64,000 nt of DNA from NCBI GenBank assembly GCA_963668315.1, contig OY764216.1:4992001-5056000 (forward strand), in the 5' to 3' direction. Under the pieces are notes generated by a model. That model made no database searches. It was not told the origin of the DNA and saw only the letters and a list, made by a program, of their open reading frames with translations. Positions 18,576-39,099 of this stretch are shown here, piece by piece. Numbering within the stretch: the first letter of the stretch is position 1; the number at the start of each line of letters is the position of its first letter. This stretch comes from Spirochaetia bacterium (lineage in GTDB: Bacteria; Spirochaetota; Spirochaetia; DSM-2461). A program made the translations under genes and the position numbers.

Positions 18576-18730
18576 GCCCCCATAGTTTTGGGGAAATCCC
18601 CTCACTCCGCTTCTGCGGGGTCAGCCTTCGGCTCCCCTCCAATCCCTTTTCCTCCCTCATGAAAAGCCCCGAGTAAACAGTCTTAAGTCAAAACGATTAT
18701 ACACTATCGCCTAATGTTATTATAACGAAT

Positions 18731-19580: not shown

Positions 19581-19641
19581 TAACTGCGAACAGGAATATA
19601 ATATTGAAGGATTAATGAAATTCGCATAAGATACGTTAGAT
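19581..19641 (+). other. Putative attI-like primary recombination site (core GTTAGAT at 19635-19641)
   Basis: First GTTRRRY upstream of cassette 1. It is complementary to GCATCTAAC (20045-20053) at that cassette's end. Confidence 0.65.
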
Positions 19642-19662
19642 GCAACTTTTTTGAAGGATTGA

Positions 19663-20052
19663 ATGAGAAAAATAGACATTATACAAGAACTTAAAAATTC
19701 CAATTTAGACCTATCGAAGGTATGGACTTTATGTGGAACAGCAATGGTTTTACATGAATTGCGGGAAACAACATCTGACATTGATTTAGGGTGTTCATCT
19801 CAATATTTCAATGAACTTCTTAAAAATAACTTTCCTGTTAAAACCTGGGAGAATGGCGACCGTTCGATACATTACACTGGAAATATTGAGATATTTGAAG
19901 AATGGAATATAAACGAGAAAAATTATTTTGATGGCATTGCAACTTCATCTGTAAATGATCTAATAGAACAAAAAGAATCTTTAAACAGAGAAAAAGATAA
20001 AAAAGATCTAGAAGTTCTTTATGCTAAACGTCTCCAAAAAAGCAGCATCTAA
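19663..20052 (+). CDS. Cassette 1: small nucleotidyltransferase-fold-like hypothetical protein
   Basis: GTAMVLHELRETTSDIDL resembles the NTase G-x-A...DxD motif. The stop TAA lies inside the inverse core ATCTAAC. Confidence 0.6.
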   Translation: MRKIDIIQELKNSNLDLSKVWTLCGTAMVLHELRETTSDIDLGCSSQYFNELLKNNFPVKTWENGDRSIHYTGNIEIFEEWNINEKNYFDGIATSSVNDLIEQKESLNREKDKKDLEVLYAKRLQKSSI

Positions 20053-20137
20053 CAGACAATATATGCTCCGCTTCGCTGCGGTCTTCGACAAATCTATCAC
20101 TGCGTGATAGACTTCATATATCGTCGGAACGTTATAC
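20047..20137 (+). repeat. attC-like site 1 (short type)
   Basis: ATCTAAC...GCTTCGC...ACTTCATATATCGTCGGAACGTTATAC. Confidence 0.85.
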
Positions 20138-20176
20138 ACAATTTCTTTTTTGAAGATTTTTTTGGAGTATTTGTTG

Positions 20177-21094
20177 ATGAATAAATTATGGCTTTTTGTA
20201 TCAATCATGACCGTTTTTTTGTTTTTTTCTTGCTCTTCTACACCCTATTCAGGAATGGAAATCATTTCAGAAAGTGACGGATATAATTATTACATTGAAA
20301 ATAGTGAATCGAACTCTTTGATCATTTATATTGATGGTAGTGGATATCAATCAGTTTTAGGTCAACGAGATGATTCTGAGAAATGGACCACTACCACCTT
20401 ATCCAATCCACTATCACAGCATTTTAGGAAGAGTTATAATATTCTCATCCCTGAGAAGTTAGATTTTTCTCCTGGAGAAATATATCTTGATAATTCTGAA
20501 GTCCTGAGTAAATCAACGGTTCAGGCTCTTGGATTAAGTTATTCCCAGAAAATAGATAACTTTTTAAGTAATCATAATTTTACTGAAATTATTTTAATAG
20601 GCGCATCAGAAGGAGGTGCCCTTTTACCTTATATTTATAACAATCTGTTACATATAGGTGAAATCAATAAACTAGTAATTTGGAGTGGAGGAGGTCTTAG
20701 TCAACTGAAAGAGTTTCAAATCCTAGGTAATTCGTCAGTTTTAATGCCTGATCAATATCGTGATCTTTGCAAGCAAGTTGATGAAATGGCTGAAGCTATC
20801 AACTCAGAACCTGAAGCTATTGATAAATTTTACCTAGGGCATCCATATATTCGTTGGAGTAGTTTTTTTAAATATGAGCCTATAGATTATATTAGGCAAA
20901 TAGATATTCCCATTTTGTTTATTCACGGAGAGATGGATTGGTCAACACCTGTTGAATCAACACGTATTATTGAAGAATCAAATATTTCTGATCAATTTGA
21001 TTTTATTTATTATCCTAAGATGGAACATAGTCCTTCGTCTTTTGCTGAATTGAAAAGAGTTTTAAAAGACATTGAGGAATGGATACTTGGTTGA
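20177..21094 (+). CDS. Cassette 2: alpha/beta hydrolase lipoprotein
   Basis: Lipobox FFSC, GASEGG, HGEMD, H. Start set to the ATG after a GGAG RBS. Confidence 0.8.
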   Translation: MNKLWLFVSIMTVFLFFSCSSTPYSGMEIISESDGYNYYIENSESNSLIIYIDGSGYQSVLGQRDDSEKWTTTTLSNPLSQHFRKSYNILIPEKLDFSPGEIYLDNSEVLSKSTVQALGLSYSQKIDNFLSNHNFTEIILIGASEGGALLPYIYNNLLHIGEINKLVIWSGGGLSQLKEFQILGNSSVLMPDQYRDLCKQVDEMAEAINSEPEAIDKFYLGHPYIRWSSFFKYEPIDYIRQIDIPILFIHGEMDWSTPVESTRIIEESNISDQFDFIYYPKMEHSPSSFAELKRVLKDIEEWILG

Positions 21095-21117
21095 ACACCG
21101 TTCAAAAAAGAAACTGT

Positions 21118-21262
21118 GTATAACAGAGAATATACGGCTCCGCTTCGCTCCGGCCCAAATTGTTTCTTTGACAAATCTCAAAAAAAGTAGTTATACTTTT
21201 TCCGAGATTTATCAACCCCACAAGGGGGCGAAACAACTTCGTATATTCTCGAAACGTTATAG
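21118..21262 (+). repeat. attC-like site 2 (promoter-containing type)
   Basis: GTATAAC-AGAGAATATACG...CGTATATTCTC-GAAAC-GTTATAG, with internal TTGACA-18-TATACT. Confidence 0.88.
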
Positions 21263-21291
21263 GAAATTTACAATATGCGTATAAGGAAAAC

Positions 21292-21606
21292 ATGGTGGAA
21301 TTAACCTCAGAAGAATTCGACAATACATTTACATCCAATTTCAATGAAGTTACTGAAACGGCAGAAAATTTTAATGGCAAAGATTTTGATCAATATGTTA
21401 AGTCGAATTTAATTGATGAACTTGGTGTTATGCAAATTGAATATATCTATGATACTAAAGATGGAAATTGGAGACATGTCATATTCAAAACACAACTGAA
21501 AAACATTAATTATGTGGTTGTCATAGATATAAATAAGAAAACTATTCTCGGGCACCATGTTTTAGATTTAAACGAAAAATATGGATTAAACGCTTTGGGA
21601 TTGTAA
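21292..21606 (+). CDS. Cassette 3: hypothetical protein
   Basis: ORF with AAGGA RBS that fills the cassette. Confidence 0.7.
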   Translation: MVELTSEEFDNTFTSNFNEVTETAENFNGKDFDQYVKSNLIDELGVMQIEYIYDTKDGNWRHVIFKTQLKNINYVVVIDINKKTILGHHVLDLNEKYGLNALGL

Positions 21607-21611
21607 ACTTC

Positions 21612-21757
21612 CTATAACAGCAAATGATGCGGTTACGGCTTTGCCTTCTCCCAAATTGCCTTTGACAAATACAGAAAAAAGTATGTTATACTTTTCCCTG
21701 TATTTATCAACCCCTTCGGGGTACCAGGCAACTTCGCATATTTGCGAAACGTTATGT
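21612..21757 (+). repeat. attC-like site 3
   Basis: CTATAACAGCAAATGATGCGG...ACTTCGCATATTTGCGAAACGTTATGT. Confidence 0.88.
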
Positions 21758-21817
21758 TCAATGCCCATTTTTAAAAGCTTGTTGTAGCCTCGCCCTTCCA
21801 TGGGCTCGGAGAAGATT

Positions 21818-23320
21818 ATGAAGAAACAAATATTTTCATATATAAATCTACTTAAAGAGTATATGATCCAGTGCGAAGGCAAAATAATAATTTCCCCTTA
21901 TCATTCAGATGTAAAAAAAATAAGATCAGTCGTAAAAAATGAAAGTGCTTTATTTAATAATGTTGTGTTTCGATGTTCAGATAGCGTTGAAATAAAAGAG
22001 CAAAATGAAAAAGAGACATTATTGTTTTCAATCATTTCCGAAGCACTACACAAACCCGATGATTATTATGAAAAATACAAACCAGAATTATTCCGAATAA
22101 AAAACAATCTGCAAGAAGTTTTATCAAAGGTTTTTCAAGAATATAAAAAGAATAGATCTTTCTGTAAAATAATAGCTGATTCTATTGGGTACAAGACATA
22201 CTCAATTCCAGAATCCATAGATTCATTTTTAGGCAAGGAACATTCATATATCTTCTTTTATATTTTTTTAAACCATATTTTTATTGATTTTTTGAAAGCG
22301 AATAATTGTTATGATATAGATACATTTTTAGAGATAGAATCCAATAAATGGTATGATTTTCATAGAAAAAAGTTTGAAGGGATAAAAAATCGGAAAAACT
22401 ACGAATATGAAATTTGTTATTATCTCAATTCGCCTATATGCACTTCTGAAAATGGAACAAAATTAGGAATCTTTAAATACTATGATAAGAATATCTCGTT
22501 ACAAACATCTTACGTTAATGATGATGAATTGGGGACATTAACATATGATTTTTCAGAAAAAGATTACTTAAAATATGTTAACACTAAAATTTCATATAAT
22601 GCTAAAATCCCCATAGAAGCTGAAGTCTCAACTTTTGAGGACTTATATAAAGAAGCAGAAGATATCGGTAAGAGGTTATTGACGAATCTACGATTAGCTT
22701 ATGAATTTGAAATTGGTGTATTAACTTTAAAAATCAAATCAAGGGATCAGTTTACTCCAGATATCAGATCTGGGAACAATATTGAATTTAGTAACAAATA
22801 TACAGCATATTTACCGAAAAGGTTTATTTTTTTTACAGATACACCAATAGATATCCAAGAGACTGACTGCTTAAGACTTTTTAAAAGATTGAACAAAGTT
22901 CAGGAAATAGATGATTGGTTAAAAATTGCCTGTAAAAGGTTTAATCTTTCGATAGATAACTATTTTGTTTATAACCATGACAGATTATTGGATATTGCAA
23001 TCGCATTTGAAGCAATTTTTTTAAATGACAATGAATCGACGAAAGAATTAACATATAGGTTAAGTGTCCGTGCAGCTAAGTTTTTAGGTAAAAATAAGAA
23101 TGAAAAAGAGAATATATTTAAAATTGTAAATGATTTATACAAGTATCGATCAAAGATAGCGCATGGTGTAGATATAAACTCTATGAAACCAAAAGATAGA
23201 GATAGAATTAATGAAATAAATATAGAAGCCCCGATTTTACTTAAACTTTCAATTGTTAAGTCGATTTTTATGAAAAGCAATGATTGGAGAAATTATTGGC
23301 AAACGTTAACTTTAAATTAA
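21818..23320 (+). CDS. Cassette 4: HEPN-domain protein (ApeA-like), candidate defence RNase
   Basis: C-terminal LLDIAIAFEAIF...ELTYRLSVRAAKFLG...LYKYRSKIAHG with an RxxxxH motif. Confidence 0.72.
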   Translation: MKKQIFSYINLLKEYMIQCEGKIIISPYHSDVKKIRSVVKNESALFNNVVFRCSDSVEIKEQNEKETLLFSIISEALHKPDDYYEKYKPELFRIKNNLQEVLSKVFQEYKKNRSFCKIIADSIGYKTYSIPESIDSFLGKEHSYIFFYIFLNHIFIDFLKANNCYDIDTFLEIESNKWYDFHRKKFEGIKNRKNYEYEICYYLNSPICTSENGTKLGIFKYYDKNISLQTSYVNDDELGTLTYDFSEKDYLKYVNTKISYNAKIPIEAEVSTFEDLYKEAEDIGKRLLTNLRLAYEFEIGVLTLKIKSRDQFTPDIRSGNNIEFSNKYTAYLPKRFIFFTDTPIDIQETDCLRLFKRLNKVQEIDDWLKIACKRFNLSIDNYFVYNHDRLLDIAIAFEAIFLNDNESTKELTYRLSVRAAKFLGKNKNEKENIFKIVNDLYKYRSKIAHGVDINSMKPKDRDRINEINIEAPILLKLSIVKSIFMKSNDWRNYWQTLTLN

Positions 23321-23397
23321 ACCTGCTACATAATGCCGTCCATGGCATTATGTAGAATTTATACGCACACATTTAAAAATGGGCACTAAACATAACA

Positions 23398-24967
23398 CAT
23401 ATTAGGACCCCATCTGTCAAGGACAAATTTTCCCCTGTTCTATCTAGGTAGAACATTTTTATATGAAGATGAACCGGACCGATAAAGAATGAAGCATTCT
23501 GTCTTGTTTCTCAAACGGGCTGCAGAAAAGATCTGCTCCAAACACACATAGACACTTTAACTCCGTAATTTTACGGCATTATAGAAATACATCCGTACCC
23601 AATCCTGTCATAATCAATGAAAACGGATTTCTTGGGGAATCCAGTTATTTTCGTGATCAGGCTGGTGCAGAATTCTTCCAGACTTTCTCAATCCTGGTTA
23701 TTTAAAACAGGTCGAAGCAGATATCCAATCAGCGAACGCATAATTCTTCTTTCAAATGATAAATACGAATGATAGTCATGCTATAAAAAGCCGTATTTAC
23801 GGTCATTATCTTTTTATGATTATAGTTATACGTTAGGCTTATCTGCTCCACCTGTTATGAACAAAAACGGTCTATATCAAAGGCTTTCCTCCTTTTGAGA
23901 ACATAATATACAGCTCTGGCTAATTTATGGGCCATGATGGAATAGGCTTTCCCGTTTCCAAACTTTTGCACTAATCTCTGATGATATGATTTTATCTCCG
24001 GGCAATAGCGGATGAACATGACGGCCGCTTCGGAGAAAGCCCACTTGAGATTAGCATTGCCGATTTTGGTATTTTTGGATGCATACTGCTTTCCTCCCGA
24101 TTCCCTCTGACACTTGACTACGCGGCAATAGGAAACGAAGTTCTGTACACGAGGAAAACGGTTAATGTCTTCAATTTCATAGAGAATAGTCAGGGCAAGC
24201 ACATCACCTATCCCGGGAATAGATTTCAACAAAGAAAATGCTAGAGGATCAGAATGATTTGCTGCCTTCAAAACACGAGATTCTATCTTCCGGATCTGTT
24301 CGGTTAACGCATCAACGACGGCTATGTCGACTTCCATATTCATTTTGACCGCCGGATCATCAAACCGTTCGAGTAATTCAGTCTTCGAAGCAATCGTAAG
24401 AGAATTGATCCCCTTCTTTATGGTATCGAAATTGTATTGGGTATTGGTATTCTGGATATGAGAAAGAAGATCTGATCTCCTGCGAACAAGATATATTCGC
24501 CGTCTGAAGAGGTCTCGAATAGCTCTGGTTTTCTGTGGGTAGACATAGGCTTGAGGGATCAGGCCACCTTTTAGCAATGCCGCTATCTTCTGGGAATCGA
24601 TTTTATCGTTCTTGGTTTTTCCTCCGCTTATAGCCTTCATGTAGAGGGCGTGGCCAAGGACAAAGGGAATACTGTTTAGCTGGCAGTAATCGGCAATCCA
24701 GTACCATGTGAAAATACACTCGACACAGATGACGATATCATTAAGAAAGGGGGCGATCGCTTGTTGAAGGTGAACCGGATCAGCGATCATGTTTTTATGA
24801 TAGACGATTTCGCCATCCTGGTTCATAATGCAGATATACATCTTTTTCGTGTGGAGATCGATTCCGCAGTAAAAGTTGTGTTGTTGGGTATAAAATTTCA
24901 TAAGGGCTCCTTTGGTTAAGGTTGTTGGAAATTTTAACATAACCACTAGGGGTCCTTATGATTATCA
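23398..24967 (-). mobile_element. IS110/IS1111-family element, copy 1 (1570 bp)
   Basis: Sub-terminal IR AGGACCCC/GGGGTCCT, CA core at both junctions, no TSD, about 460 bp of non-coding sequence downstream of the transposase. Confidence 0.92.
23855..24901 (-). CDS. IS110-family (DEDD) transposase/recombinase
   Basis: GIDLH, VECIF, KNDKIDS, SIPGIG, RESGGK. Start set to MKFYTQ, after an AAGGAG RBS. Confidence 0.93.
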   Translation of the reverse strand: MKFYTQQHNFYCGIDLHTKKMYICIMNQDGEIVYHKNMIADPVHLQQAIAPFLNDIVICVECIFTWYWIADYCQLNSIPFVLGHALYMKAISGGKTKNDKIDSQKIAALLKGGLIPQAYVYPQKTRAIRDLFRRRIYLVRRRSDLLSHIQNTNTQYNFDTIKKGINSLTIASKTELLERFDDPAVKMNMEVDIAVVDALTEQIRKIESRVLKAANHSDPLAFSLLKSIPGIGDVLALTILYEIEDINRFPRVQNFVSYCRVVKCQRESGGKQYASKNTKIGNANLKWAFSEAAVMFIRYCPEIKSYHQRLVQKFGNGKAYSIMAHKLARAVYYVLKRRKAFDIDRFCS

Positions 24968-25139
24968 GCGAATATACGCTGCGGCTTCGCCTTGGCCTTC
25001 GGCAAATAAACCCTTTGAAAATATTCTAAAAAATTATGATATAATTTCCCAGAATATTTTCAAGCCCGCAAGGGGCTGGGTTTACTTCGTATATTCGCGG
25101 AACGTTATAGGAAACATATTTTTGGAGATTATTTCGCAA

Positions 25140-25661
25140 ATGAAGAATATACTTGAAATGATAAAGAAAGATGCACGATTGTCATTCTGGAGCGAAGAAA
25201 AATTGGAACTGGAAGGCTTTGAGAGGATTTCAGCGACATTGACAACAATTCATAGATTCATTCTCAGCCCTCTCATTGCATATGTCTTCATTGCAGGTAT
25301 AACCAACATGTTACTAAATGTCTCATCAGTAGAAACATACATGATTATTCTCAGTTTTGTACTTGCCATATTCGTCTTTTACTTTTATGGCTATAGGTTT
25401 CTATCTGCTAATCATGCTTTTTTCGATAGAAAAAGTCGAATTGTTCTAATTTTTCTCCCATATAAGTATAGAATTATAAGTGTAAATAAAGACAACATTT
25501 ATTCAGTCGATGGTACAACATTTAATCCTATTGATTTCGTTACAATTAGAGTTAGAGAAGGAGACAAAGTAAGAAAATATCATTTTGTCTCTTCATTTAG
25601 ATTTTTCAAAGCATACACGGAGCATCCTATTGTTAAAAATATTAGGGAATACCTTAGATAG
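25140..25661 (+). CDS. Cassette 5: hypothetical membrane protein
   Basis: Two hydrophobic segments. ATG after GGAG at 25124; the ORF-track start at 24912 is read-through across the attC. Confidence 0.7.
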   Translation: MKNILEMIKKDARLSFWSEEKLELEGFERISATLTTIHRFILSPLIAYVFIAGITNMLLNVSSVETYMIILSFVLAIFVFYFYGYRFLSANHAFFDRKSRIVLIFLPYKYRIISVNKDNIYSVDGTTFNPIDFVTIRVREGDKVRKYHFVSSFRFFKAYTEHPIVKNIREYLR

Positions 25662-25694
25662 AACCACGTGCCAAAAAATATGCATCCTATAACA

Positions 25695-27264
25695 CATATT
25701 AGGACCCCATCTGTCAAGGACAAATTTTCCCCTGTTCTATCTAGGTAGAACATTTTTATATGAAGATGAACCGGACCGATAAAGAATGAAGCATTCTGTC
25801 TTGTTTCTCAAACGGGCTGCAGAAAAGATCTGCTCCAAACACACATAGACACTTTAACTCCGTAATTTTACGGCATTATAGAAATACATCCGTACCCAAT
25901 CCTGTCATAATCAATGAAAACGGATTTCTTGGGGAATCCAGTTATTTTCGTGATCAGGCTGGTGCAGAATTCTTCCAGACTTTCTCAATCCTGGTTATTT
26001 AAAACAGGTCGAAGCAGATATCCAATCAGCGAACGCATAATTCTTCTTTCAAATGATAAATACGAATGATAGTCATGCTATAAAAAGCCGTATTTACGGT
26101 CATTATCTTTTTATGATTATAGTTATACGTTAGGCTTATCTGCTCCACCTGTTATGAACAAAAACGGTCTATATCAAAGGCTTTCCTCCTTTTGAGAACA
26201 TAATATACAGCTCTGGCTAATTTATGGGCCATGATGGAATAGGCTTTCCCGTTTCCAAACTTTTGCACTAATCTCTGATGATATGATTTTATCTCCGGGC
26301 AATAGCGGATGAACATGACGGCCGCTTCGGAGAAAGCCCACTTGAGATTAGCATTGCCGATTTTGGTATTTTTGGATGCATACTGCTTTCCTCCCGATTC
26401 CCTCTGACACTTGACTACGCGGCAATAGGAAACGAAGTTCTGTACACGAGGAAAACGGTTAATGTCTTCAATTTCATAGAGAATAGTCAGGGCAAGCACA
26501 TCACCTATCCCGGGAATAGATTTCAACAAAGAAAATGCTAGAGGATCAGAATGATTTGCTGCCTTCAAAACACGAGATTCTATCTTCCGGATCTGTTCGG
26601 TTAACGCATCAACGACGGCTATGTCGACTTCCATATTCATTTTGACCGCCGGATCATCAAACCGTTCGAGTAATTCAGTCTTCGAAGCAATCGTAAGAGA
26701 ATTGATCCCCTTCTTTATGGTATCGAAATTGTATTGGGTATTGGTATTCTGGATATGAGAAAGAAGATCTGATCTCCTGCGAACAAGATATATTCGCCGT
26801 CTGAAGAGGTCTCGAATAGCTCTGGTTTTCTGTGGGTAGACATAGGCTTGAGGGATCAGGCCACCTTTTAGCAATGCCGCTATCTTCTGGGAATCGATTT
26901 TATCGTTCTTGGTTTTTCCTCCGCTTATAGCCTTCATGTAGAGGGCGTGGCCAAGGACAAAGGGAATACTGTTTAGCTGGCAGTAATCGGCAATCCAGTA
27001 CCATGTGAAAATACACTCGACACAGATGACGATATCATTAAGAAAGGGGGCGATCGCTTGTTGAAGGTGAACCGGATCAGCGATCATGTTTTTATGATAG
27101 ACGATTTCGCCATCCTGGTTCATAATGCAGATATACATCTTTTTCGTGTGGAGATCGATTCCGCAGTAAAAGTTGTGTTGTTGGGTATAAAATTTCATAA
27201 GGGCTCCTTTGGTTAAGGTTGTTGGAAATTTTAACATAACCACTAGGGGTCCTTATGATTATCA
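25695..27264 (-). mobile_element. IS110/IS1111-family element, copy 2
   Basis: Same ends and same transposase as copy 1, offset 2297 bp. Confidence 0.92.
26152..27198 (-). CDS. IS110-family transposase
   Basis: Protein identical to copy 1. Confidence 0.93.
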   Translation of the reverse strand: MKFYTQQHNFYCGIDLHTKKMYICIMNQDGEIVYHKNMIADPVHLQQAIAPFLNDIVICVECIFTWYWIADYCQLNSIPFVLGHALYMKAISGGKTKNDKIDSQKIAALLKGGLIPQAYVYPQKTRAIRDLFRRRIYLVRRRSDLLSHIQNTNTQYNFDTIKKGINSLTIASKTELLERFDDPAVKMNMEVDIAVVDALTEQIRKIESRVLKAANHSDPLAFSLLKSIPGIGDVLALTILYEIEDINRFPRVQNFVSYCRVVKCQRESGGKQYASKNTKIGNANLKWAFSEAAVMFIRYCPEIKSYHQRLVQKFGNGKAYSIMAHKLARAVYYVLKRRKAFDIDRFCS

Positions 27265-27436
27265 GCGAATATACGCTGCGGCTTCGCCTTGGCCTTCGGC
27301 AAATAAACCCTTTGAAAATATTCTAAAAAATTATGATATAATTTCCCAGAATATTTTCAAGCCCGCAAGGGGCTGGGTTTACTTCGTATATTCGCGGAAC
27401 GTTATAGGAAACATATTTTTGGAGATTATTTCGCAA

Positions 27437-27958
27437 ATGAAGAATATACTTGAAATGATAAAGAAAGATGCACGATTGTCATTCTGGAGCGAAGAAAAAT
27501 TGGAACTGGAAGGCTTTGAGAGGATTTCAGCGACATTGACAACAATTCATAGATTCATTCTCAGCCCTCTCATTGCATATGTCTTCATTGCAGGTATAAC
27601 CAACATGTTACTAAATGTCTCATCAGTAGAAACATACATGATTATTCTCAGTTTTGTACTTGCCATATTCGTCTTTTACTTTTATGGCTATAGGTTTCTA
27701 TCTGCTAATCATGCTTTTTTCGATAGAAAAAGTCGAATTGTTCTAATTTTTCTCCCATATAAGTATAGAATTATAAGTGTAAATAAAGACAACATTTATT
27801 CAGTCGATGGTACAACATTTAATCCTATTGATTTCGTTACAATTAGAGTTAGAGAAGGAGACAAAGTAAGAAAATATCATTTTGTCTCTTCATTTAGATT
27901 TTTCAAAGCATACACGGAGCATCCTATTGTTAAAAATATTAGGGAATACCTTAGATAG
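27437..27958 (+). CDS. Cassette 6: duplicate of the cassette 5 membrane protein
   Basis: Translation identical to 25140-25661. Confidence 0.7.
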   Translation: MKNILEMIKKDARLSFWSEEKLELEGFERISATLTTIHRFILSPLIAYVFIAGITNMLLNVSSVETYMIILSFVLAIFVFYFYGYRFLSANHAFFDRKSRIVLIFLPYKYRIISVNKDNIYSVDGTTFNPIDFVTIRVREGDKVRKYHFVSSFRFFKAYTEHPIVKNIREYLR

Positions 27959-27991
27959 AACCACGTGCCAAAAAATATGCATCCTATAACA

Positions 27992-29561
27992 CATATTAGG
28001 ACCCCATCTGTCAAGGACAAATTTTCCCCTGTTCTATCTAGGTAGAACATTTTTATATGAAGATGAACCGGACCGATAAAGAATGAAGCATTCTGTCTTG
28101 TTTCTCAAACGGGCTGCAGAAAAGATCTGCTCCAAACACACATAGACACTTTAACTCCGTAATTTTACGGCATTATAGAAATACATCCGTACCCAATCCT
28201 GTCATAATCAATGAAAACGGATTTCTTGGGGAATCCAGTTATTTTCGTGATCAGGCTGGTGCAGAATTCTTCCAGACTTTCTCAATCCTGGTTATTTAAA
28301 ACAGGTCGAAGCAGATATCCAATCAGCGAACGCATAATTCTTCTTTCAAATGATAAATACGAATGATAGTCATGCTATAAAAAGCCGTATTTACGGTCAT
28401 TATCTTTTTATGATTATAGTTATACGTTAGGCTTATCTGCTCCACCTGTTATGAACAAAAACGGTCTATATCAAAGGCTTTCCTCCTTTTGAGAACATAA
28501 TATACAGCTCTGGCTAATTTATGGGCCATGATGGAATAGGCTTTCCCGTTTCCAAACTTTTGCACTAATCTCTGATGATATGATTTTATCTCCGGGCAAT
28601 AGCGGATGAACATGACGGCCGCTTCGGAGAAAGCCCACTTGAGATTAGCATTGCCGATTTTGGTATTTTTGGATGCATACTGCTTTCCTCCCGATTCCCT
28701 CTGACACTTGACTACGCGGCAATAGGAAACGAAGTTCTGTACACGAGGAAAACGGTTAATGTCTTCAATTTCATAGAGAATAGTCAGGGCAAGCACATCA
28801 CCTATCCCGGGAATAGATTTCAACAAAGAAAATGCTAGAGGATCAGAATGATTTGCTGCCTTCAAAACACGAGATTCTATCTTCCGGATCTGTTCGGTTA
28901 ACGCATCAACGACGGCTATGTCGACTTCCATATTCATTTTGACCGCCGGATCATCAAACCGTTCGAGTAATTCAGTCTTCGAAGCAATCGTAAGAGAATT
29001 GATCCCCTTCTTTATGGTATCGAAATTGTATTGGGTATTGGTATTCTGGATATGAGAAAGAAGATCTGATCTCCTGCGAACAAGATATATTCGCCGTCTG
29101 AAGAGGTCTCGAATAGCTCTGGTTTTCTGTGGGTAGACATAGGCTTGAGGGATCAGGCCACCTTTTAGCAATGCCGCTATCTTCTGGGAATCGATTTTAT
29201 CGTTCTTGGTTTTTCCTCCGCTTATAGCCTTCATGTAGAGGGCGTGGCCAAGGACAAAGGGAATACTGTTTAGCTGGCAGTAATCGGCAATCCAGTACCA
29301 TGTGAAAATACACTCGACACAGATGACGATATCATTAAGAAAGGGGGCGATCGCTTGTTGAAGGTGAACCGGATCAGCGATCATGTTTTTATGATAGACG
29401 ATTTCGCCATCCTGGTTCATAATGCAGATATACATCTTTTTCGTGTGGAGATCGATTCCGCAGTAAAAGTTGTGTTGTTGGGTATAAAATTTCATAAGGG
29501 CTCCTTTGGTTAAGGTTGTTGGAAATTTTAACATAACCACTAGGGGTCCTTATGATTATCA
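27992..29561 (-). mobile_element. IS110/IS1111-family element, copy 3
   Basis: Same ends and same transposase as copy 1. Confidence 0.92.
28449..29495 (-). CDS. IS110-family transposase
   Basis: Protein identical to copy 1. Confidence 0.93.
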   Translation of the reverse strand: MKFYTQQHNFYCGIDLHTKKMYICIMNQDGEIVYHKNMIADPVHLQQAIAPFLNDIVICVECIFTWYWIADYCQLNSIPFVLGHALYMKAISGGKTKNDKIDSQKIAALLKGGLIPQAYVYPQKTRAIRDLFRRRIYLVRRRSDLLSHIQNTNTQYNFDTIKKGINSLTIASKTELLERFDDPAVKMNMEVDIAVVDALTEQIRKIESRVLKAANHSDPLAFSLLKSIPGIGDVLALTILYEIEDINRFPRVQNFVSYCRVVKCQRESGGKQYASKNTKIGNANLKWAFSEAAVMFIRYCPEIKSYHQRLVQKFGNGKAYSIMAHKLARAVYYVLKRRKAFDIDRFCS

Positions 29562-29853
29562 GCGTCTATATGCTCCGCTTCGCTCCGGGCTTCGCCAAAT
29601 TTAAATCAAAAAGAATTACAGCGAAAATAACAAATAGTACGCTATAATAGATTCTATACAACAATAAAATGCTACGGTCATGGCTATCGTCACGGTTTCT
29701 GCTTGCGCACAAACCGCGCCAACTTCACGCCATGCCGCAGATTTTGGCGTTGTATAGAAATCGGATATGCAAGCACGTGTTTTTGATTTAAACTTCATAT
29801 AAACGCGAAACGTTAGGTGTAATGTTCTTTTTATACAGCGTAAAGGATAAGAA

Positions 29854-30303
29854 ATGAAAACAAAATTTTCACATGTAAATATTATTAGTAGTGATTGGAA
29901 AAAATTAGCAGATTTTTATATTAGAGTTTTTGATTGTAAACCAAAACTTCCGGAGAGAAATCTTTCAGGTGATTGGGTTGATAAATTAACTGATTTATCA
30001 AATGCTAGAATAAAAGGGATGCACTTAATCCTCCCGGGTTATGACACCGATGGTCCCACTTTAGAGATCTTTGAATACAATGCAAATATAAGTAATAATG
30101 GTAAAAATATAAATCTGGAAGGGTTTGGTCATATTGCTTTTGCGGTAGAGGATGTTGAGGAAAAGTTAAATCTTTTATTGGATAACGGTGGATCTTCAGT
30201 CGGTCAATTGATTGACGCTGAAATAGATGGAGTCGGCAAAATCTCAGTTGTTTATGCAAAAGATCCAGAAGGCAATATTTTAGAAATTCAAAAGTGGGAA
30301 TAA
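29854..30303 (+). CDS. Cassette 7: VOC/glyoxalase-family protein
   Basis: HVNIIS...FY, LEIFEY, GFGHIAFAVEDV, YAKDPEGNILEI. Confidence 0.88.
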   Translation: MKTKFSHVNIISSDWKKLADFYIRVFDCKPKLPERNLSGDWVDKLTDLSNARIKGMHLILPGYDTDGPTLEIFEYNANISNNGKNINLEGFGHIAFAVEDVEEKLNLLLDNGGSSVGQLIDAEIDGVGKISVVYAKDPEGNILEIQKWE

Positions 30304-30315
30304 AAAGAACACTAC

Positions 30316-30459
30316 ACCTAACAGCAAATGATGCGGTTCCGCTCCGCTTCACCCAAATTGCCTTTGACAAATACCCGTTCAATTATGATATAATTGAACA
30401 GCCATTTATCAACCCCTATTGGGGTACAGGCAACTTCGCATATTTGCGGAACGTTACCC
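30316..30459 (+). repeat. attC-like site 7
   Basis: ACCTAACAGCAAATGATGCGG...ACTTCGCATATTTGCGGAACGTTACCC. Confidence 0.88.
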
Positions 30460-30523
30460 ATTATTATTTGGCTTATAATATTTTTTTTCATCATTCGCCA
30501 TCCTTGGCTCATTAGGGGAAATT

Positions 30524-30994: not shown

Positions 30995-31057
30995 ATCGTG
31001 TTTAAAAGTACATCCTTGTACTTTTAAAGAACCTATACGCTGTCGCCAAATAACAAC

Positions 31058-31201
31058 GGGTAACAGCGAATTATGCGGTTTCGCTTCGCTCCACCAAAAT
31101 TGCCTTTGACAAATACCCGTTCAATTATGATATAATTGAACAGCCATTTATCAACCCCGGTGGGGTACCAGGCAACTTCGCATATTCGCGAAACGTTATA
31201 T
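31058..31201 (+). repeat. attC-like site 8
   Basis: GGGTAACAGCGAATTATGCGG...ACTTCGCATATTCGCGAAACGTTATAT. Confidence 0.88.
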
Positions 31202-31215
31202 TCAATAGCCAATTC

Positions 31216-32031
31216 ATGAAAATCTTTTTTAAATTTGGAGAAAATCCTTTGAAAGATTATGGGGAATCAAAACAATTACAGTTTCTCAACAAAACTTACA
31301 GTTTTATAAAAGACTGTATTGGAGAATCTCCAGCAGATGTTTTTATTCTAGACAATAGAAAGACATCTGAAAAATTGTTCCTTAAAATCAGCTCTAAAGA
31401 TTTTTCCTTCACTACATATTCTGTTGAACGGGAAATGCTTGTCTTGAAATGGCTAGCAGACAAAACGGATGTACCAACTGTTGTAGACTATTTTGAAAAT
31501 GAGGATTATCAATTTCTTCTGATGAAAAGCATTATTGGATTGCCAATTCTGGACACCGCACCTTCTGGAAATACTATCGTTGATTCTTTTGTCAATGGAA
31601 TAAAGACCTTTCAATCCATCAATGTTGATGATTGCCCTTTTGATAGTTCTATGAAAAAACGATTAAAGGAACTGAAATACCTGGTTAATAAAAATTTGGC
31701 AGCATTTGATGACTTTTATGAAAGTGAGTTGCCATTTGATTCCCCTGAGGATTTAATCAGTTATTTAGAAAATAATATGCATCCAGAGGAAATTGTTTTT
31801 TCCCATGGAGATTTTCAAGAAAGTAATATTTTCATCTCTAAGAAATTAGGTTTCATAGATTGGGGGCGTGGGGGAAAGGCTGATAAATGGTGTGATATTG
31901 CTCATGCTTATCAAAACATTAAAGAGCAATTGGAAGATCAGAAATATATAAACCGATTCTTTGAAAAACTAGAATTAGAACCTGATTGGGACAAGATAAA
32001 TTTCCATTTATGGCTCGATGAATTGTTCTGA
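31216..32031 (+). CDS. Cassette 9: aminoglycoside 3'-phosphotransferase, APH(3')-like
   Basis: GESPADVF, LFLKIS, YSVERE, CPFD, FSHGDFQESNIF, GFIDWGRGGKADKWCDIA and C-terminal LDELF, as in APH(3')-III-type enzymes. The true start may be TTG at 31249. Confidence 0.85.
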   Translation: MKIFFKFGENPLKDYGESKQLQFLNKTYSFIKDCIGESPADVFILDNRKTSEKLFLKISSKDFSFTTYSVEREMLVLKWLADKTDVPTVVDYFENEDYQFLLMKSIIGLPILDTAPSGNTIVDSFVNGIKTFQSINVDDCPFDSSMKKRLKELKYLVNKNLAAFDDFYESELPFDSPEDLISYLENNMHPEEIVFSHGDFQESNIFISKKLGFIDWGRGGKADKWCDIAHAYQNIKEQLEDQKYINRFFEKLELEPDWDKINFHLWLDELF

Positions 32032-32055
32032 CACCGTTCATGAATTGGCTACTGA

Positions 32056-32201
32056 ATATAACAGCCAATATACGGCTCCGCTTCGCTCCGGCCCAAATTA
32101 ACCCTTTGACCAATTCTGAAAAAAGTATGATATACTTTTCCCGAAATTGCTCAACCCCACAAGGGGCCGGGTTTACTTCGTATATTGGCGAAACGTTAGC
32201 A
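32056..32201 (+). repeat. attC-like site 9
   Basis: ATATAACAGCCAATATACG...CGTATATTGGCGAAACGTTAGCA. Confidence 0.88.
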
Positions 32202-32269
32202 AAATTTTTGTTTTCGGCTTCGTTATCGGTTTTCTGACCATCCGTGGTCAGAAAAAATGAAGGAGTAAC

Positions 32270-33055
32270 ATGGAAATTCAACATCTTGAGAAATACTATA
32301 ATAATATTGATGAGGATGGAAGGCTCCTTTCAAAATATGGTTCAGTCGAATTTTTAACCACTATGAAATATATTCAAAAATATCTTACGCAGGATATGAA
32401 GATTTTGGATATTGGGGCTGGAACAGGTATTTACAGCCTGGCTTTAGCTGATAAGTGTCATCATGTTGATGCCGTAGAGCTGATACAGAAAAATATTGAC
32501 ATATTCAAATTAAAAATAGAAAAGCATAAGAATATTACAGTGCAAAAAGGAAACGCTCTAGATTTGAGTTTTCTGGAAGATAATTTCTATGATATTACGT
32601 TGTTATTTGGCCCTATGTACCATCTTTATACAGAAGAGCATAAACTCAAAGCTCTTTCAGAAGCAATAAGGGTAACAAAACCAAAAGGCTATATTCTAAT
32701 AGCATACTGTATGTCGGATGCAACTATTTTAAATTATGGGTTTGTAAAGAAAAATATTGTGGATCTTATTGAAAAAGAGATGTTAGATACGGAGGAATTT
32801 AAGCCCCGGTCAGAACCGATAGATCTATTTGAACTTCATAGAAAGGAAGATATAGACCGCCTAAATAATAAATTTAATGTAAAAAGATTAAACTATGTAG
32901 CTACAGATGGTTTTACAAATCATTTTAGAGAAACCGTGAATAATATGAGTGACAAAGAATTTGAGATTTATATGAAATACCATTTTTTCACGTGTGAACG
33001 AGAAGATATGCAAGGAATAACTCATCATAGTCTGGATATATTACAAAAACAATAA
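32270..33055 (+). CDS. Cassette 10: class I SAM-dependent methyltransferase
   Basis: ILDIGAGTG, GNALDL, GPMYHL. Confidence 0.88.
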   Translation: MEIQHLEKYYNNIDEDGRLLSKYGSVEFLTTMKYIQKYLTQDMKILDIGAGTGIYSLALADKCHHVDAVELIQKNIDIFKLKIEKHKNITVQKGNALDLSFLEDNFYDITLLFGPMYHLYTEEHKLKALSEAIRVTKPKGYILIAYCMSDATILNYGFVKKNIVDLIEKEMLDTEEFKPRSEPIDLFELHRKEDIDRLNNKFNVKRLNYVATDGFTNHFRETVNNMSDKEFEIYMKYHFFTCEREDMQGITHHSLDILQKQ

Positions 33056-33125
33056 AAGAATGAGGAAATACTATACATCCCTGTATAGTATTATCTTCTA
33101 TCAGAAAATCCGAAAACAAAACTTC

Positions 33126-33326
33126 AGCTAACAGCGTTTATATGCTCCGCTACGCTCCGGGCTTCGCCAAATTTAAATCAAAAAGAATTATTTTAAAAAA
33201 AGAACAACAATTACGCTATAATAGATTCTATACAACAAGGATTTGCTACGGATTTGCCTATGTCACATTTCTTGTTTTCACAAGAAATTCGCCAATTACG
33301 GCAAACCGCAGAAATCGTCGTTCTAA
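33126..33326 (+). repeat. attC-like site 10 (long type, ends at the inner GTT)
   Basis: Left arm matches site 6; the sequence diverges right after the inner CGTT at 33319-33322. Confidence 0.75.
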
Positions 33327-33346
33327 AGACAAAGAAGGGGGGGGGA

Positions 33347-33871
33347 ATGAGACTAGTTATACGATTAGCCACAAAAGAAGATTCATCAAGTATTCTTAGA
33401 GTAATTAATCAATCATATAATCCATATAAAAACTTAATACCAGCTAATTGTGGATTTGTAACTTCTATAGAAGAAATAATCAAAATTATGAAAGATGAGA
33501 GCTCCTCATGTTGGGTAGCTGAAAATAATGATAGTGTTATTGGTGTTGCTACTGGAATTACAATTGCTCCAAGAGCATATCATCTTAAGCTTTTATTTAT
33601 CGCAGAACATGCGCAACGCAAAGGTATAGCTTCGAACTTATTATCAACTTATGAAAATTCAGGCAAAAAAAAAGGGTATAAATTATTAACTACCAATTAT
33701 CAGAAATGGGCTCCATGGTCAAGAAACTTCTATCTTAAGCAAGGATATAAGGAATATATTGAGGGGGATGAATTAGATTTTCCAGATTTGCATGAAACGA
33801 TTTCTTTTTATAGAAGGATTGGTAAGTTAAATAATGATCGAAAATGTTTTATATGGAAAAAGACATGCTAA
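33347..33871 (+). CDS. Cassette 11: GNAT-family acetyltransferase
   Basis: IRLAT, AQRKGIASNLL acetyl-CoA motif A, FYLKQGY. Confidence 0.85.
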   Translation: MRLVIRLATKEDSSSILRVINQSYNPYKNLIPANCGFVTSIEEIIKIMKDESSSCWVAENNDSVIGVATGITIAPRAYHLKLLFIAEHAQRKGIASNLLSTYENSGKKKGYKLLTTNYQKWAPWSRNFYLKQGYKEYIEGDELDFPDLHETISFYRRIGKLNNDRKCFIWKKTC

Positions 33872-33944
33872 GGTTACGGGTAAGGAGCACTAAATGCCAT
33901 CCGTGGCATTTACTGGACATACAGACAATAGGAATGGGCACTAA

Positions 33945-34090
33945 ACATAACAGCAAATGATGCGGTTATGGCTTTGCCTTCACCCAAATTGCCTTTGACA
34001 AATCCAAGAAAAAGCACGTATACTTTTCCTTAGATTTATCAACCCCTAAAGGGGTACCAGGCAACTTCGCATATTTGCAAAACGTTAAAT
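33945..34090 (+). repeat. attC-like site 11
   Basis: ACATAACAGCAAATGATGCGG...ACTTCGCATATTTGCAAAACGTTAAAT. Confidence 0.88.
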
Positions 34091-34093
34091 GAA

Positions 34094-34585
34094 ATGTTTT
34101 GGGAGAAGATTTTTTTACAAGGAATTATTTTGAAACAACCAAGAATTGTAACTGTTTGCGGAGCTTTAGTTATTAACAATAATCAAGTTCTCATAATTCA
34201 GGAAGCTAATAAAAAGGCTTTTGGGAAATTTAATATTCCTGGAGGTCATGTTGATTTAGATGAAGATCTGAAGGAAACGGCTATCCGAGAAGTTAAAGAA
34301 GAGACGGGAATTCCCATCATTGTTGAAGATTTTCTTGGAGTCTATACTCATCAAGCACAAGATAAATCAACAATCATCAAAATAATATTTGTTGGAAAAC
34401 CCTGTGATTTTGAAATCAATTTTCCTAAGGATGAGATACTAAACGCTACTTGGATGAACATTGATGATTTTCTGAAAATCGAAGCTGATAAGTTACGTTC
34501 ACAAGATTTATTTTCAATAATTACAGATTATAGAAACAAGAATCAATGTAATTTATCATTAGTGAAAGATATTGTTAGAGTATAA
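34094..34585 (+). CDS. Cassette 12: NUDIX hydrolase
   Basis: Nudix box GGHVDLDEDLKETAIREVKEETG. The true start may be TTG near 34130. Confidence 0.9.
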   Translation: MFWEKIFLQGIILKQPRIVTVCGALVINNNQVLIIQEANKKAFGKFNIPGGHVDLDEDLKETAIREVKEETGIPIIVEDFLGVYTHQAQDKSTIIKIIFVGKPCDFEINFPKDEILNATWMNIDDFLKIEADKLRSQDLFSIITDYRNKNQCNLSLVKDIVRV

Positions 34586-34617
34586 TTTTATTCTGACCCA
34601 TTCTCCCAAAACACTTC

Positions 34618-34761
34618 ATCTAACAGCAAATGATGCGGTTACGCTTCGCTTCACCCAAATTGCCTTTGACAAATCCAGAAAAAAGTATGATATACTTTTC
34701 CCTGTATTTATCAACCCCTGCGGGGTACAAGGCAACTTCATATATTCGCGAAACGTTAAAT
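34618..34761 (+). repeat. attC-like site 12
   Basis: ATCTAACAGCAAATGATGCGG...ACTTCATATATTCGCGAAACGTTAAAT. Confidence 0.88.
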
Positions 34762-34818
34762 ATAATTCAGGTTAGATGGATACTTGATTCAGCCATCCGT
34801 GGCCTCGAAGGAGAATGC

Positions 34819-35648
34819 ATGAGCAAAGATCACACTCCTATTTTAAGAAATTACAGGAATAATTGGTACAATGAAGATTATCTCTTGATTTAATTGCAAA
34901 AAGAATTGATCTTTATTCATGTGTAGACATTTTAGATGTTGGCTGTGGTGAATTTCATTGGACCCTATTACTTGCAAAATACTTTCCAGATAATTTTCAT
35001 TTAGTAGGTATTGATTTGAATGAGATAACTTTCTCAAAACTCACAGATATTAAAGAATTATATCCCAATTGGAATTTTATAAAAGGTGATATTAAGAGAT
35101 TGCCTTTTGAGGATAATTCATTTGATCTTGTTACATGTCAGACATTACTTATCCATCTAGACTCTCCGATTTTAGCTGTAAAAGAGATGTTCAGAGTACT
35201 AAAGCCAGGCGGAAAAGTACTCATTTCAGAACCTAATAATTTTTCTCAATCGACATTTAGAAATAGCTGGAATATAGATCATAGTACCCAGAAAAGATTG
35301 GATAGTATAACTGAAAAATTGAAAAGTGATGAGAAGAAAAAGAAAAATGGCCATGGTGATAATTCAATAGGAGAAATTGTTCCCATTCATCTCAGAAAAA
35401 ACGGTTTCTCAGAAATTAGAACCTATATGAATGATAAGGTTACCTCTCTTGTTCCTCCATATTCAACAATAGAAGAACAACAAAAAATTGATATGCTAAC
35501 TCATTTCTCAGAAAACTATCCATTTGAAATGTCAGAACAAGATAAAGAAGAATTAAATGATGAAATCCAAATGATCAGTCGAGAAGAGTATATTGCATAT
35601 AATCCAACAATGTTATTCCTGACTATGGGAGTCAAACCTCAGATATAA
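34819..35648 (+). pseudogene. Cassette 13: frameshifted SAM-dependent methyltransferase
   Basis: The frame from ATG 34819 (after AAGGAG) stops at 34893. The other frame continues ...ILDVGCGEFHW...GDIKRLPFEDNSFDLV. Consistent with a +2 (CT) duplication near 34883. Confidence 0.75.
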
Positions 35649-35700
35649 AAGTACGTCCTTGTACTTTTATTCAATCTTTTCCGTAATAACCTGGAACTAC

Positions 35701-35893
35701 ATTTAACAGCGAATGATATGCTCCACTTCGTTTCGGGCTTCGCCAAATTTCTATCAAAAAGAATTAGTTCCGAAATAGAGAATTTGTATGCTACAATGAA
35801 CAACAATATAACCAAGATTTGCTACTGTCACATTTCTTGTTTTCACAAGAAATCCGCCAGCTTCACGGTCTGCAGCAGAAATCGACGTTATCT
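35701..35893 (+). repeat. attC-like site 13 (long type, ends at the inner GTT)
   Basis: ATTTAACAGCGAATGATATG...AATATAAC...GAAATCGACGTTATCT. Confidence 0.75.
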
Positions 35894-35923
35894 TGACTAA
35901 ATATTTTTGAGGAGAAAATAAAA

Positions 35924-36319
35924 ATGTTAGGATTAACTTTATATATAGAAAATTCTAATGAAGCTTTAGATTTTTATTGTAATGCCTTCAAATTGGAATT
36001 GGGATATAATGTTAAAAATGATAATGGAACATATTTACATGCTGAACTTTTTAGACAAGGTTTTGGTGGTTTTGCAATAAGTGAATCAGATGATAAAATA
36101 ATTCAAAATGCAATGCTTGCAGCTAAACAGCCAACAATAAGTTTAGGGATGAATTTTGAAAGCAATGATGAATTAGATCATGCTTATGAAGTACTAGGAG
36201 AAGAAGGTCATATCCTACGTCCAATTGGTTCTCTTCCTTGGTCTCCATATTCAGCAGATGTTGTAGATAAGTTTGGGGTTTGTTGGTATTTATATGTAAC
36301 TCAGCATAAACCTGAATAA
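35924..36319 (+). CDS. Cassette 14: VOC/PhnB-family protein
   Basis: EALDFYCNAF, HAEL, PWSPYSADVVDKFGVCW. Confidence 0.85.
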   Translation: MLGLTLYIENSNEALDFYCNAFKLELGYNVKNDNGTYLHAELFRQGFGGFAISESDDKIIQNAMLAAKQPTISLGMNFESNDELDHAYEVLGEEGHILRPIGSLPWSPYSADVVDKFGVCWYLYVTQHKPE

Positions 36320-36382
36320 TATTTGTTTCTTAACCATTCGGCTCAATGCCTCATTAAAGGCTTTTTCAGGGCGTTTACTGCC

Positions 36383-36501
36383 TTATAATAGCAAGTGAAT
36401 ATTTGATCCGAAATGTTCAATCCTTCAACTGTAGTCGTTCGGCATCCGTGCCTCACTACTTGGTAAATCCCGACGCATACTACTTATAACAGACGATATA
36501 T
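36383..36501 (+). repeat. Degenerate attC-like site 14
   Basis: TTATAATAGC...AGACGATATAT with the core mutated GTT to GAT. The downstream GATATATGTAATGATTTTTTG still complements the end of cassette 15. Confidence 0.55.
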
Positions 36502-36536
36502 GTAATGATTTTTTGAGATTTATACAGGAGGGACAT

Positions 36537-36905
36537 ATGCCTGATTTTGATACAATTGACGATTATATCAATTCCCAACCAGAGGGTACAAAAGAAGCTC
36601 TATTTAAATTGAAGGATTGTATACTCAAAGCTGCTCCTGATGCAAAAGAATTATTCAATTATAGTATTCCTGCATTTGCTTTAGTAGAAAATGGGAAAAG
36701 AGAACAACAGATAATGATCGCAGGATACAAAAAGCATGTTGGGTTTTATCCACATCCAACAACTATTGAAAAATTCGCTAATAAATTAACTATATATAAA
36801 CAAGGTAAAGGATCTATTCAATTTCCAATAAACAAACCAATTCCTTGTGAACTGGTAATTGAAATGGTTAAGTATAGAAGAATGCGTGTTAAGGCTGGTA
36901 AATAA
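36537..36905 (+). CDS. Cassette 15: DUF1801/YdhG-like protein
   Basis: TIDDYI, NYSIPAF, AGYKKHVGFYP, KGSIQFP. ATG after GGAGG. Confidence 0.82.
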   Translation: MPDFDTIDDYINSQPEGTKEALFKLKDCILKAAPDAKELFNYSIPAFALVENGKREQQIMIAGYKKHVGFYPHPTTIEKFANKLTIYKQGKGSIQFPINKPIPCELVIEMVKYRRMRVKAGK

Positions 36906-36933
36906 ATGACGCAAAAAGTCACTACATATAACA

Positions 36934-38503: not shown

Positions 38504-38651
38504 GCGAATATGCGGTTCCGCTGCGCTTCACCAAAATTGCCCGTTGGGCAACTTCACCTATTCGCGAAACGTTATCGGCAATAAGCGCCAAAGCATTTAT
38601 TATTCAAAGGAAAATCCGGCGTTCTGCCGGATAAAATGGAGGAAATTAAAA

Positions 38652-39071: not shown

Positions 39072-39099
39072 TGTAAGTCGCAAGAATTTTTGGGGAAAA

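Follow-up and report, generated by a model that had tools for sequence, protein, structure and literature searches.

Most cassettes of an integron-like array in a 64,000-nucleotide stretch of Spirochaetia bacterium DNA (contig OY764216.1 of assembly GCA_963668315.1, positions 4,992,001 to 5,056,000; the whole stretch is called the window) are bounded by long inverted repeats that carry a mismatch at position 11, and the array lies beside a tyrosine recombinase that is related to the integron integrase IntI and has no I2 insert. Our reading, to which we give a probability of about two in three, is that the repeat forms the outer arm of a site folded from the bottom strand, in imitation of the dif duplex of Xer recombinases, and that the mismatch, A.C on the top strand and a G.T wobble on the bottom strand, likely marks the strand to be cut.

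The window lies within a complete genome of 5.6 Mb and holds two tRNAs and then the recombinase gene on the minus strand. Divergent from this gene, a series of low-GC genes, all on one strand, extends from 19635 to about 39600, broken up by four identical IS110 copies. Sites, cassettes and arrays of this kind, as beside the I2-less recombinase, are called short-type, and those of the classical IntI/attC kind canonical.

Terminal repeats and the position-11 mismatch

Repeat pairs were sought with an anchored scan, and cassettes were delimited separately by inner attC motifs, independently of the repeat. The attI-proximal cassette start was added by hand, as were 8 starts and about 5 ends overall, partly via the repeat scan, which makes the delimitation mildly circular. 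A private terminal inverted repeat of 14 to 26 bp was present in 13 of the 15 cassette slots; a preliminary description of this DNA had given every cassette its own repeat and left C11 and C14, which have none, unmentioned. Comparison of the 11 distinct intact cassettes (C6, a duplicate of C5, C15, whose start is damaged, C16, C11 and C14 being omitted) showed a repeat of at least 14 bp in all 11, with a median of 23. Start and end pairs taken across different cassettes had a median of 4 (5/110 reached 14), and arbitrary GTT..AAC pairs in the array reached 14 in 17 of 10,964 cases, true pairs included.

Position 11 was mismatched in 11/11 cassettes, with C on the end side in all 11 and, on the start side, A in 10 and T in C8, and the mismatches outside position 11 were mostly A.C on the top strand, i.e. 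G.T on the bottom strand (6/10, with none in the reverse orientation and 4 neither). Both results agree with the preliminary description. Its further claim that the repeat sequence differs among cassettes held for positions 5-9 and 13 onward, which are private, and failed for positions 1-4 and 10-12, which are common to the cassettes (the cross-pair match at positions 10 and 12 was 0.67). The terminal repeats of this array and their position-11 mark are real and specific.

Transposon ends, terminators and an assembly artefact were ruled out as sources of the repeats, these being private in sequence, placed at sites and present in other genomes. Public contigs over this part of the array had even depth and, in the longest pieces, identical cassette ends; they are a non-independent confirmation because they probably come from the source sample. 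Among the public runs listed, none with RNA held the array.

Comparison with canonical and other short-type cassettes

The short-type set drew on 10 arrays, spread over 8 genomes (that of the window and seven others), and numbered 57 distinct cassettes; five starts in relatives for which no end was called, and C16, were dropped from the counts. A repeat of at least 14 bp was reached by 56/57 of these cassettes (median 20), and A.C at position 11 was found in 47/57. The same genome also encodes a canonical IntI of 411 aa, above its family cut-off, with arrays of its own, and the median end pairing was 11 bp in 9 of its cassettes, 8 bp in 41 cassettes that we take to be of Treponema type and 8 bp in 13 class 1 cassettes. 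Among all canonical controls, 1/71 reached 14 bp and 0/71 had A.C at position 11. Equally long pairing in canonical cassettes, the outcome that the preliminary description had named beforehand as counting against it, was thus not found, and its value of about 7 bp for canonical core complementarity has to be raised to the 8-12 bp measured in the controls. The class 1 cassettes came from 7 of 10 fetched plasmid regions and were delimited by hand, since most class 1 sites had escaped the generic caller for canonical attC; one (IMP-13, 5 bp) was perhaps mis-started. Of nine further IntI loci in all, one (G134) was left out of site scanning and five scanned ones (G132, G047, G092, G149 and G081) had no usable array.

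Our survey of I2-less relatives showed chains of repeat-bounded cassettes at 10/77 genome loci and 9/80 viral loci; the taxa were Bacteroidota, Bacillota, Gemmatimonadota and Spirochaetota. After removal of two false junctions and of five loci that were duplicates or doubtful, A.C stood at position 11 in 45/47 cassettes of the loci retained. This survey selects by repeat length and is therefore informative only on the mismatch and the taxa. Among the cassettes of L025-L026 (genome G021), 4/13 had perfect repeats of 14-16 bp with no position-11 wobble. Two more short-type arrays lie in the genome of the window, at 3.438-3.4453 Mb (minus strand) and 4.5468-4.549 Mb (plus strand), each with its own attI-like site; neither has an adjacent recombinase, and both have a near-identical upstream stretch with a small open reading frame.

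attI and architecture of the sites

The attI-like site beside the recombinase gene (19619..19646, plus strand) has the geometry of dif, with an 11-bp left arm (19619-19629), a 6-bp centre (19630-19635) and an 11-bp right arm (19636-19646) that is the start of C1. The putative crossover, G|TT, falls at 19635, and like sites occur in 5 other arrays. The left arm has exactly the sequence of the XerC arm of the Bordetella dif given in PMC2731167, the attC-like sites have an inner arm that agrees with the XerC arm of Thiobacillus at 10/11 positions, and cassette starts matched the XerD arm at 7.3/11 as against 5.7/11 for canonical cassettes; the Thiobacillus dif arms of the same source show the same ACT versus AAT difference between them. 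The array has an 11-6-11 site with XerC-like and XerD-like arms, as Xer/dif systems do, and a same-strand run of cassettes with foldable AAC...GTT sites, as integrons do.

The geometry of canonical attC sites, a 5-6 nt unpaired spacer per arm and 2-3 extrahelical bases, was not found in the short-type sites. The short-type centre has 1 nt against 5 nt unpaired, with an A.C pair and a 4-nt bulge, and an extra base in some sites only. The core of the site after C1, the shortest type (20054..20130, plus strand), has the A.C pair beside AAC, the 4-nt bulge, an inner arm with a side hairpin and a mirrored A.C at 20092/20112. Comparison of 38 distinct sites showed that in 34/38 AAC is followed by A and GTT is preceded by C, with four bases bulged, and that the next inner pairs covary (106/114, as against a mean of 43 and a maximum of 61 in shuffles). 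The inner arm consists of 7 pairs, the side hairpin and then AAAT against ACTT. At its mirror position, which was left unscored, C stands opposite A in 44/51 sites, and this position forms G.T in 36/48 bottom-strand folds; in sites from other phyla, a G.T was found at offset 18-20 in 22/31. The A.C at the inner-arm mirror position makes position 11 the outer-arm copy of a two-arm wobble. Judged by sequence comparison, the position-11 mismatch is not private, being the outer motif (AAT/ACT) of 11-bp arms of the Xer type, so that the per-cassette feature of the preliminary description becomes a motif that is conserved in Xer arms and has its mirror image in the inner arm.

Ordinary Xer recombination on double-stranded sites, with the repeats as duplex binding arms and the hairpins incidental, would agree with the 11-6-11 spacing of the end-side half alone, with an enzyme without I2 and with the sequence conservation of the arm motifs. 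It is nevertheless the least probable of the explanations weighed here: the arm at the attI junction is the start-side arm, whose duplex neighbour lies 10 bp off and not 6, the centre bases covary as pairs within one strand (106/114), and the private pairing at positions 5-9 and 13-26 would be meaningless in duplex DNA.

In the loop hairpin of the 130-bp sites, promoter-like -35/-10 pairs (TTGACA, 18-19 nt, TATAAT or TATACT, often with TG) face the next cassette with a long spacing, at window 21168-21197, 21661, 25014, 30363, 31105, 32105, 33995-34024, 34665 and 45202. The promoter scan overall found no excess (72 versus 77 in shuffles).

Folding and strand bias

Predicted folding of circle-form sites was better for the bottom than for the top strand in 7/7, by 5-11 kcal/mol, and circle-form sites folded better than array-form sites in 7/7, by 8-21 kcal/mol. 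When the natural sequence of a cassette and both flanking sites was folded whole, the pairing of the cassette's own ends was predicted at 0.85-0.98 and the array-type pairing at no more than 0.06 in 10/10 short-type cassettes, while 2/3 canonical cassettes folded likewise gave the opposite result. The long stem extends the attC, as the preliminary description had proposed, and is predicted to form outside the excised circle too, to which that description had confined it, since own ends pair in single-stranded array folds.

The 42 mismatches other than position 11 comprised 17 bottom-strand wobbles, 3 top-strand wobbles and 22 that were neither, in line with the suggestion that wobbles favour the bottom strand and with the bottom-strand G.T bias described for integron sites (PMC5027507). 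The bottom strand is the lagging-strand template, by GC skew, in 3/3 short-type arrays of this genome, a small number; this orientation is described as favouring folding (PMC5371416).

The adjacent recombinase

The recombinase (18731..19531, minus strand, 266 aa) is a tyrosine recombinase related to IntI in which the catalytic R, K, HxxR, H and Y are present, invariant in an alignment of 7 rows. It scored 183.5 bits against TIGR02249 (cut-off 265), with the match in two stretches, and it has 28 residues where IntI4 has 71 at the position of the I2 insert. From the catalytic R to HxxR it counts 91 residues as against 133 in 13/14 IntI rows (182 in the 14th), so that it is 42 residues shorter than IntI in this interval. 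Its structure model (predicted local distance difference test, pLDDT, 88) matched the fold of IntI4 best and that of archaeal XerA next, and its best named relative came from a Spirochaetes genome. The left half of an attI-like site (window 18712-18740) overlaps the stop codon of the recombinase gene and resembles the orphan attI sites.

In a tree of 50 rows, IntI formed one clade (100/100) inside a group with the I2-less enzymes, and this group (97/94) was separate from XerC/XerD; its internal branching is compatible with either a sister or a paraphyletic position of the I2-less enzymes relative to IntI. The enzyme is therefore an IntI relative with intact catalytic residues, and not an IntI with the I2 insert near patch III; with an I2-less integrase and a different site geometry, the canonical-integron framing of the preliminary description has to be given up. 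Nor is it XerC or XerD, since it forms a clade separate from the host Xer pair. The array also lies far from the terminus indicated by the skew, whose maximum is at 3.58 Mb, at a distance of about 1.4 Mb.

The host XerC/XerD, and not the adjacent enzyme, might integrate the cassettes, as they do CTX phage at dif. The dif-like attI and arms, the xerC and xerD genes of the genome and its two extra attI-bearing arrays without an adjacent recombinase speak for this explanation. We consider it very unlikely, because short-type arrays adjoin members of the I2-less clade in many phyla, this clade is distinct from XerC/XerD, arm positions 4-8 vary freely, unlike XerD arms, and a simple pattern search of this genome gave no clear dif for comparison.

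Maintenance of the repeats and nested canonical sites

Between C8 and an 81%-identical homologue, the arms were paired in both, and between C15 and a 77%-identical homologue (genome G006), position 8 was changed on both arms. This is just one two-sided change because few homologous cassettes occur in arrays (search of 401 genomes). Homologues of the C7 gene outside arrays had no intact repeat at 10/10 loci, some with decayed remnants, and the repeat was likewise not intact in one further C7-gene copy outside arrays in this genome. C7-gene copies L229, L230, L231 and L239/L248 keep remnants of one or both arms, like domesticated cassettes. Pairing kept in homologues and decay outside arrays favour, on thin data, upkeep by use over an inert footprint.

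In such a footprint, which the preliminary description had also raised, one end would have been copied from the other at cassette birth, or by later hairpin template switching, and the first few pairs alone would matter. Positions 13 onward are indeed private, lengths vary from 14 to 29, the arms overlap coding sequence in C1, C3, C7 and C9, and cassette genesis is described as unexplained (PMC4889954, PMC5371416). Copying would not, however, leave the same mismatch in 47/57 cassettes plus its mirror in the inner arm, canonical cassettes also pass through circles and yet stop at 8-12 bp, and the arms have kept their pairing in homologues with 77-81% identity and have decayed in copies outside arrays. 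We regard a footprint as unlikely for the repeat as a whole, if less so than the other alternatives; the stem beyond position 12 may have originated in this way.

A canonical-geometry attC is nested in three long short-type sites: one, which holds no cassette, in the loop of the long site that precedes C7 (29654..29757, plus strand), one after C10 (33228..33322, plus strand), at which C11 begins, and one at which C14 begins (35805-35889). In a second C10 copy of the genome the nested site is empty, while the window copy holds C11 there, and the empty nested form was found, as an exact pattern, in 3/401 genomes. Nested canonical sites may let IntI cassettes enter a short-type array, and the missing repeats of C11 and C14 fit entry by the classical route, followed, we infer, by loss of their own sites. 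The site of C14 is deleted into the start of C15 (window 36490-36500), apparently via a short shared TATATG.

These nested sites bear on the possibility that the canonical IntI of the genome acts in trans on unusual attC sites, with the short recombinase a bystander. A complete IntI elsewhere in the genome, the putative G|TT crossover and the three nested canonical-geometry sites, apparently used by C11 and C14, would suit it, and Cury et al. conclude that such recombinases near attC are not IntI (PMC4889954). The centre, with 1/5 nt unpaired instead of 5/5-6, and the lack of a regular extrahelical base argue against it; moreover, the genome's IntI arrays have other sites with short end pairing, and nested canonical sites would be redundant. 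We rate action of IntI in trans a shade below recombination by the host XerC/XerD.

Proposed mechanism

In the folded bottom-strand, dif-mimicking site that we favour, the adjacent enzyme would bind a duplex of about 11 bp per subunit, so that the whole arm must pair, clamped by a few more pairs, and the cassette's own ends would supply one arm. IntI with I2 would manage on 7-9 bp of pairing and an I2-less enzyme would need more. The enzyme would read the bottom strand because only there do both outgoing arms end in AGT with the wobble pair; on the top strand neither would end in AGT. In integration, the folded circle would recombine with attI by a single strand exchange and replication would resolve the product, as with CTX phage, for which a one-strand exchange by XerC is described (PMC4792948, PMC7790495).

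For excision we can offer only a speculative scheme, more doubtful than probable: own ends would pair in the single-stranded array and form, with two inner stems, a four-way junction from which one exchange would give the circle, so that I2 would be unneeded for excision. The array might, tentatively and at odds against, be a living pre-I2 integron, in which a Xer-like enzyme, IntI's closest relative, would act on two-fold symmetric dif-mimic sites with a G.T per arm as strand code, the ends would zip into a four-way junction and nested attC would admit IntI cassettes.

Several results weigh against the folded-arm reading. An 11-bp arm accounts for 12 pairs and not for up to 26, the stems overrunning the arm by up to 14 bp, and I2 is held essential for cassette capture (PMC7790495, PMC8138268). 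C was absent from end position 11 in 8/57 short-type cassettes and position 11 was paired in 5/57, so the wobble is not obligatory; its mirror was missing from the predicted fold in 9/31 distant sites. The lowest-energy circle fold lacked the inner stem in 3/7 cases (C7, C8 and C12), and one canonical control, with a 15/17 repeat, was predicted to pair its own ends too. The wobble excess could equally be expected from C-to-T damage of a single-stranded bottom strand, and the counts overstate independence because the sites are related by descent. No chain was found at 67/77 genome and 71/80 viral loci, many on short contigs, or beside a second I2-less relative in this genome. Finally, the public contigs examined (4/8 listed runs) had joints only in repeated site DNA and gave no recombination, circle or shuffled junction, which is no evidence of absence because contigs drop rare forms.

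Cassettes and other elements of the window

C1 to C16 all lie on the plus strand. C1 (19635..20053) has arms at 19635-19656 and 20032-20053 (19/22), the 3' arm covering the final 21 nt of its open reading frame. The hydrolase-like C2 (20131..21124) has arms at 20131-20154 and 21101-21124 (23/24), C3 (21256..21618) at 21256-21274 and 21600-21618 (18/19), and C4 (21751..23396) at 21751-21775 and 23372-23396 (23/25). The site of C4 is split by an IS110-family element with IS1111-like subterminal inverted repeats (23398..24965, minus strand), inserted one base past the site AAC. Further copies of this element lie at 25695-27262, 27992-29559 and 36934-38501; all 5 genome copies, the fifth at 3441082-3442170, lie one base past the AAC of short-type sites. 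C5 (25104..25693; arms 25104-25123 and 25674-25693, 18/20) is tandemly duplicated between IS110 copies (region 23398-29559), C6 (27401..27990) being its exact duplicate.

C7, of the glyoxalase family (29812..30322), has arms at 29812-29834 and 30300-30322 (22/23), and C8 (30453..31064), whose start has T instead of A at position 11, at 30453-30472 and 31045-31064 (18/20). C9 (31195..32062; arms 31195-31220 and 32037-32062, 25/26) encodes an aminoglycoside phosphotransferase of the APH(3') family (window 31216-32031, 208 bits versus a cut-off of 205). The methyltransferase cassette C10 (32195..33132) has arms at 32195-32220 and 33107-33132 (22/26) and is followed by C11 (GNAT, 33320..33951) and C12 (NUDIX, 34084..34624; arms 34084-34107 and 34601-34624, 22/24). 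C13, a methyltransferase cassette (34755..35707), has arms of 12/14 ungapped, longer with one gap; C14 spans 35887..36490. C15 (DUF1801, 36495..36932) has a repeat of 18/21, its start damaged by loss of the GTT and its site split by IS110, and C16 (DUF3788 and AAA, 38571..39582) has a normal start and a lost end. All pairs listed in the preliminary description lay where it had placed them. Its pair values stood for C1, C2, C4, C7, C8, C9 and C12, and so did its remark that C5, C13 and C15 are similar; those of C3 (17/18) and C10 (20/23) were revised to 18/19 and 22/26, respectively.

Cassette leaders and trailers repeatedly contain a small hairpin whose loop resembles CATCC(G/T)TG (near 21790, 30500, 32240, 33895, 34790 and 36440, in a rough tally). 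About 5 kb beyond the array, at window 44229-45260, a solitary gene of the CAAX protease family resembles a cassette and has a degenerate short-type site. An Rfam scan of the window found two tRNAs and one riboswitch, the azaaromatic (yjdF) riboswitch at 62815-62914 (61.7 bits), and nothing else.

Significance and comparison with known systems

Accounts of integron origin describe a chicken-and-egg problem of I2 domain and attC sites, with intermediates lacking (PMC4792948, PMC7790495), and integron-finding software counts insert-less recombinases as non-integrons (PMC4889954). If the adjacent enzyme moves cassettes, the array would supply the missing intermediate and a testable link between Xer and integrons, and would show strand choice without I2; widespread gene-capture arrays, here with an aminoglycoside-phosphotransferase cassette, would then escape current screens. 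The long repeat with its position-11 mark is a signature that is easy to search for, and standard assays can accommodate sites of this small size. A literature search, with most subscription journals outside its reach, found no long private cassette-end repeats, position-11 wobble or I2-less cassette arrays in the accessible parts of its sources (including PMC9024848, PMC9892861, bioRxiv 10.1101/2022.02.06.479319 and PMC11208160); the 21 recombinases without insert near attC sites in the supplement of PMC4889954 may bear on novelty.

Transposon terminal inverted repeats, which are common to many elements and go with a target duplication and a transposase, differ from those described here, which are private (cross pairs, median 4) and abut recombination sites. 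In the pdif modules of Acinetobacter plasmids, accessory genes are bounded by dif-like arms in duplex 28-mers for XerCD; the bounding arms are alike, whereas here the sites are long and foldable and all cassettes have one orientation. With Xer/dif and CTX-type integration (integrative mobile elements exploiting Xer, IMEX) the array shares the 11-6-11 site, the arm motifs and a single strand that folds into the likeness of a duplex, with no extrahelical bases (PMC4792948, PMC7790495, PMC2731167). It differs from them in its own recombinase in place of the host XerCD, its many arrayed cassettes, a private arm per cassette and a site that adjoins the recombinase gene and is some 1.4 Mb away from the terminus indicated by the skew.

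With integrons, whether class 1, of Treponema type or the IntI arrays found in this genome, the array shares a divergent recombinase gene, an attI, single-gene cassettes, the G|TT crossover, foldable sites with bottom-strand G.T bias (PMC5027507), integrase-less arrays elsewhere and IS1111-like insertions in sites. Unlike integrons, it has an I2-less enzyme, a centre of 1/5 nt instead of 5/5-6, 11-bp dif-like arms, a side hairpin in place of regular extrahelical bases, a median end pairing of 20-23 bp versus 8-11 and a fixed wobble on both arms. The array is the signature of an integron-like system that falls outside integrons when membership is decided by IntI.

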